This document shows positions 53,116 through 55,185 of a DNA stretch of 64,000 nucleotides, one piece after another (position 1 is the stretch's first letter; every line of letters begins with the position of its first letter). Location: positions 198,111-262,110 of the forward strand of contig JBAZZB010000001.1 in NCBI GenBank assembly GCA_041659045.1, written 5' to 3'. This stretch comes from Patescibacteria group bacterium (GTDB lineage: Bacteria; Patescibacteriota; Patescibacteriia; SG8-24; DYFX01). A program made the translations under genes and the position numbers. A model generated the notes under the pieces. It saw only the letters and a program-made list of their open reading frames with translations, had not been told where the DNA came from and ran no database searches.

Positions 53116-55185
53116 ATGACTACTCGCAGCGGCCGGTCGTTTTTTTACTACGTGTCTGTTCCGTTCATCTGGCTCGGCAAAGCGCTCAGCCGGCTCGTTA
53201 AACCCTCGCCTCGCGGCAAAGTCCGCTGGGCGGTGTTGACTGTGCTCGTCCTCGCTGGATTGGCCGGGTTCTTGTCGTATCCGAACGTGTGGGACCGCGG
53301 TGCCAATGTTTGGAACGCTAAGGTTGTCGAGGCGTACAAGCTTCCTGGTGCGCTTAAGATTCCTCACTTCAAGAACGTTCCGTTCCGCCTTGGTCTCGAT
53401 CTTCAGGGTGGCACGCACCTCGTCTATGAAGCGGACACGAATGATATCGTTCCGAACGAGCGCGATGCTGCCATGGAGGGTGTGCGCGACGTCATCGAAC
53501 GCCGCGTCAACGCTTTTGGCGTCGCCGAACCGATCGTGCAAACCAACAAGTCGAACGACCGTTGGCGCATTATCGTCGAGTTGGCTGGCGTGAGTGATGT
53601 GAGCCAGGCGATCCGCATGATCGGCGAAACGCCCATCCTTGAGTTCAAGGAAGAAAACCCGGTGGAGAATATTCCTCTTACTCCGGAACAGCAGAAAGAA
53701 CTCGAGAAGAAGAATGTCGATCTCAAAAAACAGGCGAATGACACGTTGCGCAAGGCGCTCTTGAACCCGAACGACGCTTCGCTTACGTGGACGAAACTCG
53801 GGCTCGTGGGCGAATCGCAACAGCCAGAACTTTGGAAGTGGGCCGACACACATCGTGGCGCCAAAATTTCCGGCACGTTGGTTGAAGATCCGCTCGGTTG
53901 GAACGTGCTGCGCGTGAACGCACGCGATGCCGCCGCCAAAGAAGTGCGCGCAAGCCACATCTTGATCTGCTGGGAAGGCGCGCAAGGTTGTGGAGAGCCG
54001 CTCACAAAAGAGCAGGCTTTGGCGCAAGCGACCGCCCTGCGCGGTGAGTTGACGGTCCAAAACTTCGGCGAAAAAGCCAAAGCAAATTCAACCGACGGTT
54101 CGGCGCAAACGAACGCGGGTGATCTTGGTTGGTTCAGCGAAGGAGCGATGGTGAAAGAGTTCCAAGATGCCGCCTTCGCTCTCAAAACGGGAGAAATTTC
54201 CCAGCCGGTCGAATCTCCCTTTGGCTATCACCTGATCTACAAGTCCGGAGAACGTCCGCTCATCCGTTACGACGTGGACCGCATCTTCGTCGAGAAGGCG
54301 ACGGCGGCTGATGTTGCGCCGGAAGCGGATCCATGGAAGAACACCGGTTTGTCCGGCAAGCACGTGCAGCGCGCCCAGGTTGAGTTCGACCAGACCGTCA
54401 ATCGTCCGCAAGTGCTCCTGACCTTCAACGAAGAAGGGAAGGAACTCTTCGCCGAACTGACGAAGCGCAGCGTCGGAAAGCTGATCGCGATCTATCTCGA
54501 TGGCGAACCGATCTCCATTCCGCGTGTCCAGCAAGAAATCTCGGACGGCAACGCTGTGATCTCCGGAGACTTCGACGTCAAAGAAGCAAAACTTTTGTCG
54601 CAGCGCCTGAACGCCGGAGCGCTCCCGGTTCCGATCAAGCTGCTCTCGCAGCAGACGATCGGTGCTTCGCTCGGTCAGGATTCTCTCGCGAAGAGCTTGC
54701 ACGCCGGTATGATCGGTTTCCTGATCGTCGTGATCTTCATGACGCTCTACTACCGTCTGCCCGGCTTGATCGCCTCGCTTGCGTTGCTCATGTATACCGG
54801 CTTCAGCTTGGCAGTCTTCAAGATGCTCGGTGTCACCCTGACCTTGTCGGGCATCGCCGGCGTTATTCTGTCGATCGGTATGGCTGTCGACGCCAACATC
54901 CTGATCTTCGAGCGCATGAAAGAAGAATTGAAGAATGGACGACCGCTTGATTCGGCTATCGGTGAAGGTTTCAAGCGCGCCTGGACGTCCATCTACGACT
55001 CGAACATCTCGTCGCTCATCACCTGCGCGATCCTCTACACGTTCACATCGAGCTCCGTGCGCGGCTTTGCCGTCACGCTGGCGCTCGGCATCCTGATCTC
55101 CATGTTCTCCGCAATCACCGTGACGCGTACGTTGCTTCGCTTGGTCGCGCCGTGGACTACCAAATATCACTGGCTGTTCAAGTAA
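53116..55185 (+). CDS. secD: protein translocase subunit SecD with an inserted parvulin-type (PpiC) PPIase domain
   Basis: 689 aa; SecD TM1 and periplasmic head; an internal approx. 100-aa segment ASHILICW...[43 protein letters not shown] matches the parvulin rotamase signature; C-terminal 6-TM SecD core. Confidence 0.85.
   Translation: [689 protein letters not shown]

Follow-up and report, generated by a model that had tools for sequence, protein, structure and literature searches.

The subject of this analysis is the secD gene of a Patescibacteria group bacterium (GenBank assembly GCA_041659045.1), which lies in a stretch of 64 000 nucleotides of contig JBAZZB010000001.1 (positions 198,111 to 262,110), referred to here as the window and used for all coordinates. 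The open reading frame (ORF) at 53116–55185 is uninterrupted and encodes a SecD protein in which sequence comparison identified a tandem of two parvulin-fold modules inserted in the extracytoplasmic P1 domain, with SecD sequence flanking the insert on both sides (Table 1). A preliminary description of this DNA had proposed that SecD here carries an inserted parvulin (PpiC) peptidyl-prolyl isomerase (PPIase) domain, and that proposal was borne out by Pfam, by the NCBIfam model TIGR01129, and by sequence and fold searches of the Protein Data Bank (PDB).

Table 1. Features of the secD locus and neighbouring genes, in window coordinates; residue numbers are those of SecD unless another protein is named. 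TM, transmembrane helix; AF2, AlphaFold2; HMM, hidden Markov model; Tt, Thermus thermophilus.
Feature	Position	Strand	Residues and remarks	Evidence
ORF	51120–51833			weak, sub-threshold P-loop kinase matches (AAA_28, thymidylate kinase, dNK)
secD ORF with tandem-parvulin insert in extracytoplasmic P1 domain	53116–55185	+	689 aa	ATG start, TAA stop
TM1	53221–53283	+	~ 36–56	hydropathy (35–58); AF2 model helix (32–54)
Sec_GG motif and P1 base (SecD_1st)	53380–53658	+	89–109 (PF07549); 120–181 (PF21760)	Pfam; aligned to TtSecDF 33–119
Module 1, degenerate parvulin-like, without catalytic residues	53671–53913	+	186–266	alignment, family HMM, AF2 model
Module 2, canonical parvulin PPIase domain	53914–54249	+	267–378; H281, D327, L337, M345, F349, H372, C285/C292	Pfam, conservation, Pin1 alignment, Foldseek
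Post-parvulin segment: Y-x-V-x-R-I-L strand, then linker to head	54250–54339	+	379–408	AF2 models, alignment
P1 head subdomain (SecDF_P1_head)	54340–54630	+	409–505	PF22599, E = 2.4e-27, profile positions 18–114 of 114
TM2–TM6 (SecD_SecF_C)	54637–55143	+	508–676 (PF02355); includes D592	Pfam, TtSecDF alignment
secF	55187–56098	+	303 aa; SecF D209, R243	TIGR00966, 268.5 bits (cutoff 160)
ORF ahead of coupling ATPase	56152–57504	+	450 aa	no Pfam match
TrwB/VirD4-type type IV coupling ATPase	57511–59397	+	628 aa; long Pro/Ala-rich tail	PF10412, PF12696, PF02534; C-terminal treble-clef zinc finger PF23477

The NCBIfam SecD equivalog-domain model TIGR01129 matched the protein with 392.1 bits (cutoff 244.4) in two stretches parted by the insert, and Pfam together with hydropathy gave the SecD domain order of TM1, GG motif, P1 base, P1 head, and C-terminal five-helix bundle. 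The initiating methionine matched the start position of at least 90% of the aligned homologs. Comparison with canonical SecDF, as represented by T. thermophilus (3AQP, 5YHF) and Deinococcus radiodurans (5XAN, 5XAP), returned E = 2e-82 by sequence and E ~ 1e-20 by fold, the fold of the SecD model matching 3AQP, 5XAN, and 5YHF; TM1, the P1 base, the P1 head, TM2–TM6, a SecF partner, and the Asp/Asp/Arg proton path are common to both. As in canonical SecD, TM1 places the residues up to ~ 520 outside the cytoplasm.

Thermus has a single SecDF protein, whereas the bacterium studied here has separate secD and secF genes, the secF start codon lying one base past the secD stop (aagTAAtATG). In related loci secF was found directly downstream in 63 of 80 cases, and most of the others were cut by contig ends. 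Three residues of TtSecDF, D340, D637, and R671, are essential in Thermus (PMC5974789), and the alignments equate these with SecD D592, SecF D209, and SecF R243, respectively. Conservation was assessed in a set of 81 sequences, comprising the query and 80 species-level loci of 46–89% identity to it, and D592 was kept in 80 of these. Judged from these alignments, the proton-path residues are intact and the protein is a genuine SecD with a cognate SecF.

The site of the insertion was located by a sequence search against 3AQP, in which residues 90–181 aligned with TtSecDF 33–119 and residues 412–678 with TtSecDF 160–426. The 40-residue base-to-head linker of the Thermus protein (120–159) is thus replaced in the query by residues 182–411, a stretch of ~ 230 residues that contains the two parvulin-fold modules, and the P1 head begins to align at TtSecDF residue 160. 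The preliminary description had placed the parvulin within the periplasmic head region; the alignment with canonical SecD agrees that it lies in P1, but puts it at the junction of the P1 base and head and not inside the head proper. The P1 head is the swinging, substrate-binding part of canonical SecD. In the working model for SecDF, the head swings on this same base/head junction between membrane-facing and upright forms, with substrate held in a cavity (PMC5974789).

The length of P1 varies among the NCBIfam subfamilies of SecD and SecDF. Residue 409 of the query corresponds to position 380 in NF009585, and residue 454 to position 839 in NF009540, so that the P1 head falls at profile position 380 or 839 in those models, compared with ~ 130 otherwise. 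P1 is a known site of lineage-specific expansion, and what sets the present case apart is an insert that can be recognised as an enzyme. Mean column conservation was 0.72–0.75 across the SecD core of P1 base (0.75), P1 head (0.73), and TM helices, falling to 0.62 in module 2 and 0.48 in module 1. The insert is therefore under purifying selection, albeit looser than that acting on the core.

Module 2 of the insert scored far above threshold with both of the parvulin profiles that had been put forward as a check: Rotamase_3 (PF13616) gave 80.8 bits (cutoff 22.5; E = 1.4e-22) at residues 267–374, and Rotamase (PF00639) gave 77.5 bits (cutoff 21.7; E = 1.7e-21) at residues 294–375. The complete parvulin signature that had been read from the sequence was present, with HILI at residues 281–284 and its second, 42-residue motif at residues 335–376. 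Sequence searches of the PDB matched the segment to the parvulin domains of PrsA, SurA, and Pin1 with E values down to 3.6e-16. The parvulin lobe of the predicted AF2 structure was superposed by Foldseek on the PPIase domains of Staphylococcus aureus PrsA and Bacillus anthracis PrsA and on Pin1, with a root-mean-square deviation (rmsd) of 2.1–2.9 Å and template-modelling scores of 0.79–0.90 when normalised to the target.

The residues expected of a parvulin active site were almost invariant in the 81 sequences: H281 was conserved in 80, an acid at position 327 (D/E) in 79, L337 in 81, M345 in 76, F349 in 80, and H372 in 81. Alignment with human Pin1 equated L337 with L122, M345 with M130, F349 with F134, F369 with S154, and H372 with H157, and it placed the conserved acid of module 2 one residue before the position of Pin1 C113. 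An acid at that same place has been reported for the catalytically active PrsA of Bacillus subtilis (10.1101/2024.09.05.611430). On the strength of these comparisons, module 2 appears to be a complete, and probably active, PrsA-type prolyl isomerase.

Two cysteines of module 2, C285 and C292, lie in the β1–α1 loop (HILICxxGAxxC; 53968–53991) and were invariant in all 81 sequences. The insert alone was searched against 1.84 billion cluster representatives and the best 150 matches were taken, of which 19 were SecD fusions and 131 were free-standing proteins. The motif H-x3-C-x(5-8)-C was found in 13 of the 19 SecD-fusion representatives, compared with only four of the 131 free-standing relatives. 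Because the domain is extracytoplasmic, the simplest reading of the Cys-x6-Cys pair is a disulfide bracing the loop, and it probably stiffens that loop on the substrate side.

Membership of the PrsA, SurA, or PpiD families was rejected. The SurA_N, SurA_N_2, and SurA_N_3 domains gave no match in the query with Pfam, the parvulins being flanked instead by the P1 base and head of SecD and lacking an NC domain, and the NCBIfam PrsA and SurA models scored only 48–63 bits against cutoffs of 343–394. The parvulins are internal to SecD (residues 186–378) and are tethered by its TM helices, rather than having an anchor of their own or a soluble form.

The preliminary description was right about the parvulin insert and had taken it for a single domain. 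That view was rejected, since the aligned family, an HMM of the family, and Pfam searches of homologs all revealed a tandem. When the query was aligned with 46 homologs, most of the sequences had ADFAxLAxEYSxDxxTKxxGGDLGF...G...LIETxxGxNIxK, itself a parvulin signature, upstream of the canonical module. Two Rotamase stretches were found by Pfam in all five homologs tested, module 1 of homologs scored 52.9–69.3 bits on PF13616, and an HMM built from the module 1 region of the family also matched module 2 (E = 8e-7). Two parvulin modules were detectable in 69 of the 81 sequences. Module 1 of the query itself gave no Pfam match even at E ≤ 10, and its sub-lineage has lost ~ 13 residues of the module 1 EYSxDxxTKxxGG loop.

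The AF2 model gave module 1 the α1, β2, α4, β3, and β4 elements of a parvulin, without an N-terminal β1 strand of its own and the His that this strand carries. The position of the second His was occupied by N, E, S, or D in 77 of the 81 sequences. Taken with the alignments, this indicates a tandem insert made up of two parvulin-fold modules, of which the first is predicted to be catalytically dead, and module 1 would most likely serve as a scaffold or as a substrate-binding surface.

When the insert alone (residues 176–415) was modelled by AlphaFold with the family alignment, a two-lobed structure was obtained with a predicted local distance difference test score (pLDDT) of 93.3 and a predicted template-modelling score (pTM) of 0.79, and in this model the two modules are predicted to form a single rigid body. 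The model contained two unusually long continuous strands. In the first, at residues 261–284, β4 of module 1 runs directly into β1 of module 2. In the second, at residues 370–393 and seen in both AF2 models, β4 of module 2 runs into a conserved Y-x-V-x-R-I-L segment in which Y385 is nearly invariant. Residues 383–393 (54262–54294) resemble a parvulin β1 strand without its His, and it could be that this strand supplies the missing β1 of module 1, which may then be a circular permutation. Such a permutation would place the termini of the insert next to each other, which is needed if a domain is to be inserted in a loop. Note that re-permutation in silico, with the post-module-2 strand placed before module 1, gained only +0.6 to +2.6 Pfam bits and extended the match modestly toward the β1 positions of the profile.

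A survey across taxa, which the preliminary description had called for, found the SecD–parvulin fusion to be lineage-wide in Patescibacteria and not a one-off. The best 120 matches in a collection of 5.8 billion proteins, which reached down to 51% identity, all had the same Pfam domain set (120 of 120); the named members among them were called only ‘protein translocase subunit SecD’ and came from Patescibacteria, Parcubacteria, or ‘bacterium’ metagenome-assembled genomes (MAGs). A scan of species-representative genomes returned at least 557 relatives, the best 80 of which cover the query nearly end to end, and the titles of these 80 species-level genomes include Candidatus Falkow-, Magasanik-, Uhr-, Buchanan-, and Nomurabacteria and the Parcubacteria group. 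A large clade of Patescibacteria has conserved the tandem-parvulin SecD, which is present in at least 80 species genomes and probably in several hundred.

Many MAG records with a Patescibacteria-type SecD (L001, L002, L004, L005, L011, and others) are titled ‘uncultured Gammaproteobacteria bacterium’ and belong to the binchicken and SRP co-assembly series. A few proteins carry attributions to Binatia, Eisenbacteria, or Baltobacteraceae. Both kinds of label look like placeholders or the result of mis-binning.

In 18 of the 19 SecD fusions recovered with the insert alone, the order of the parvulin and such SecD parts as were present was the expected one. The closest non-SecD sequence relatives of the insert were free-standing tandem or triple parvulin (lipo)proteins such as P0121, P0122, and P0129 (E = 1e-46 to 1e-30, 2–4 Rotamase repeats). 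The 131 free-standing relatives as a whole had one to four parvulin repeats, two to four in 128 of them, and about one-third had a lipobox-like N terminus. Both they and the SecD insert have an extended β1–α1 loop of the form HIL[IV]x[WY]xGA. In contrast to the insert, the free-standing proteins have no SecD parts, every repeat has its own β1 His, and the Cys-x6-Cys pair is rare. Going by these sequence likenesses, proteins of this type are plausible donors of the insert.

The free-standing proteins with two to four parvulins seem to represent a class of multi-parvulin foldases that has yet to be characterised. In P0121, P0122, P0124, and P0140, two to four parvulins follow one another, often behind a lipoprotein signal, and β4 of one repeat is joined through ~ 8 residues to β1 of the next. 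Among other matches, P0248 (604 aa) has ~ 115 extra residues between two parvulin modules, possibly a third module, and P0242 (281 aa) is a fragment with a P1-head match ahead of the parvulin.

Several characterised systems bring parvulins and SecDF together, or resemble the insert, in other ways. At the Sec translocon of E. coli and Vibrio, PpiD(-YfgM) stands apart as a protein that has a TM anchor of its own and chaperone domains like those of SurA, whereas the parvulins described here are covalently part of SecD, keep the catalytic set in module 2, and have no detected SurA_N-type domain. The PPIase domains of Bacillus PrsA (4WO7, 6VJ4, 6XD8) are among the closest solved relatives of module 2 (E = 1.7e-15, rmsd 2.1–2.6 Å), and PrsA and module 2 both carry the acid ahead of the Pin1 C113 position. 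PrsA likewise acts as a foldase outside the cytoplasm in a bacterium that has no outer membrane; it is, however, a dimeric lipoprotein with a single parvulin inside an N/C chaperone domain, while the query has tandem parvulin folds, no such domain, anchorage via SecD, and the additional Cys-x6-Cys loop. SurA (1M5Y) also has two parvulins in series, the first inactive and the second active, as is proposed for modules 1 and 2, and it aligned to module 2 with E = 1.4e-13. SurA differs in being soluble, in its N/C chaperone core, and in its arrangement of the parvulins (219 aligned columns at 13 Å rmsd), and module 1 differs from SurA in having no N-terminal strand of its own.

A further parallel is found in Mycoplasma pneumoniae, where a dome of the PrsA homologs Mdp444/436/489 almost obligately covers the Sec translocon together with its SecDF (10.1101/2025.04.25.650208). 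For one of these homologs, Mpn444, PPIase activity has been measured, and the protein crosslinks to SecD (10.1101/2024.09.05.611430). In both cases, a genome-reduced bacterium has PrsA-like parvulins tied to a SecDF-containing translocon; in Mycoplasma these are separate large lipoproteins, whereas in the query they form a covalent insertion of ~ 210 residues in SecD. The dome has been called unique to Mycoplasmas by the authors of that preprint (10.1101/2025.04.25.650208).

One interpretation of these data, and one that we regard as fairly probable, is that the SecD of the proton-driven SecDF motor in Parcubacteria-type Patescibacteria has a built-in foldase–holdase of the PrsA/PpiD kind. A tandem parvulin unit has been spliced into the variable P1 base/head linker, and SecDF would act as usual, with protons passing via D592, SecF D209, and SecF R243 and the P1 head swinging to pull on the chain emerging from SecYEG. 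Following a hand-over from the P1 head, the parvulin unit would meet the unfolded chain at release, hold it, and catalyse prolyl isomerisation. The insert would then do in cis what PpiD in E. coli, PrsA in Firmicutes, and the PrsA-like dome lipoproteins in Mycoplasma do in trans beside SecDF. The coupling of translocation to prolyl isomerisation had already been suggested in the preliminary description, and the conservation of the catalytic residues together with the known in-trans partnerships of SecDF with parvulins makes it plausible.

Several points weigh against this interpretation. The PPIase activity of module 2 is predicted from residues alone, and the model of the full-length protein (pTM 0.40) does not place the parvulin cleft relative to the P1-head cavity and SecYEG. 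Whether the parvulin domain of PpiD is important for function has been questioned (PMC9643414), and since PPIase activity is often dispensable or absent in well-studied relatives, conserved residues need not mean that catalysis has been selected. Note, however, that the catalytic set has been strictly retained in module 2 but has decayed in module 1, a contrast that speaks for catalysis.

Of the two parvulin domains of SurA, the first has no catalytic activity yet binds peptides, and the second is active. This precedent lends weight to the main rival explanation, in which the tandem acts as a holdase or ratchet only: it would bind unfolded chains, stop backsliding or aggregation, and enlarge the capture surface of P1, isomerisation not being its selected function. 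Module 1 has been kept in all family members despite the loss of its catalytic residues, as a binding role would have it; several relatives do without PPIase activity; and partial folding or binding outside the channel has been proposed to prevent backsliding (10.1101/2025.04.25.650208). A mere binding surface would, on the other hand, hardly explain why 76–81 of the 81 sequences retain both His residues of module 2 along with its acid and Pro-pocket residues, particularly as module 1 shows how fast catalytic residues drift once released from selection. We therefore consider a role restricted to holding unlikely.

Much less likely again is a purely structural or regulatory role, in which the insert would be a rigid two-lobed lever, a spacer, a docking site (facing, for instance, YidC, SecYEG, the S-layer, or the cell wall), or a tuner of the P1-head swing, with no action on substrates. 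Its position exactly in one connection between the P1 base and the swinging head, the rigid body predicted for it, and the expansions of P1 in NF009585 and NF009540 would suit such a role, which we nevertheless hold to be very improbable because a complete parvulin active site has been retained and parvulin foldases are recurrently associated with SecDF in unrelated bacteria. An artefact, whether a chimera of a prsA-like gene with secD arising from assembly or frameshift, or a normal P1 subdomain resembling a parvulin by chance, was considered solely because the sequence looks metagenome-like, and it can be practically dismissed: no support for it was found, the gene is one ORF whose architecture recurs in independent NCBI, ENA, JGI, and Logan assemblies and in the 80 species-level genomes, and a Pfam E value of ~ 1e-22 with superposition at ~ 2.2 Å excludes chance similarity.

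None of the genes neighbouring secD relates to protein folding, no second parvulin gene was found in the window, and the DNA next to secDF in the 80 related genomes, 598 kb of it, contained no other parvulin. The built-in foldase–holdase could be taken a step further, to a SecDF motor and parvulin foldase that form one machine. In such a machine of these minimal-genome bacteria, the P1 head, in its proton-driven swing, would pass every emerging segment mechanically into a rigid double parvulin attached to it, made of a circularly permuted inactive lobe and a disulfide-braced active lobe. The cell would have no extracytoplasmic foldase besides this unit, which would stand in for PrsA, PpiD, and SurA; the preliminary description had likewise suggested coupling without a separate PrsA/SurA. 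This extended proposal is doubtful; if it were true, the arrangement of an inactive lobe with a braced active lobe would have no solved counterpart.

No description of a SecD–parvulin fusion was found in a literature search whose coverage excluded subscription-only papers. The fusion is apparently undescribed, although both of its parts come from well-known families and the architecture could be displayed by domain databases. Public databases label its carriers simply ‘SecD’, so that the feature goes unnoticed in annotation. Its relevance lies in the hand-over from SecDF to folding factors, which is still unresolved, the PpiD–SecDF contact in E. coli and the Mycoplasma dome having been found only recently and their geometry being uncertain. 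A covalent fusion in at least 80 species genomes is independent evolutionary evidence, of the ‘Rosetta stone’ kind, that SecDF and parvulin activities belong together; it sets a 1 : 1 stoichiometry and points to the P1 base/head junction as the place where they meet. The SecD–parvulin protein is also a compact construct suited to structural and single-molecule studies of how translocation and folding are coupled, and it adds to the view of envelope proteostasis in ultra-small, genome-reduced bacteria without an outer membrane.

Long antisense ORFs (≥ 200 aa) overlap real genes throughout the window, for example, at 53008–54060 and 54088–55200 opposite secD; they have no homology support and are expected at ~ 56% G+C. 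Of the ORFs around secD, those at 49975–50388, 50404–51042, 51879–52454, and 52490–52945 (minus strand) gave no Pfam match at E ≤ 0.01. Directly downstream of secF and on the same strand lie the 450-residue ORF and the gene for the coupling ATPase.

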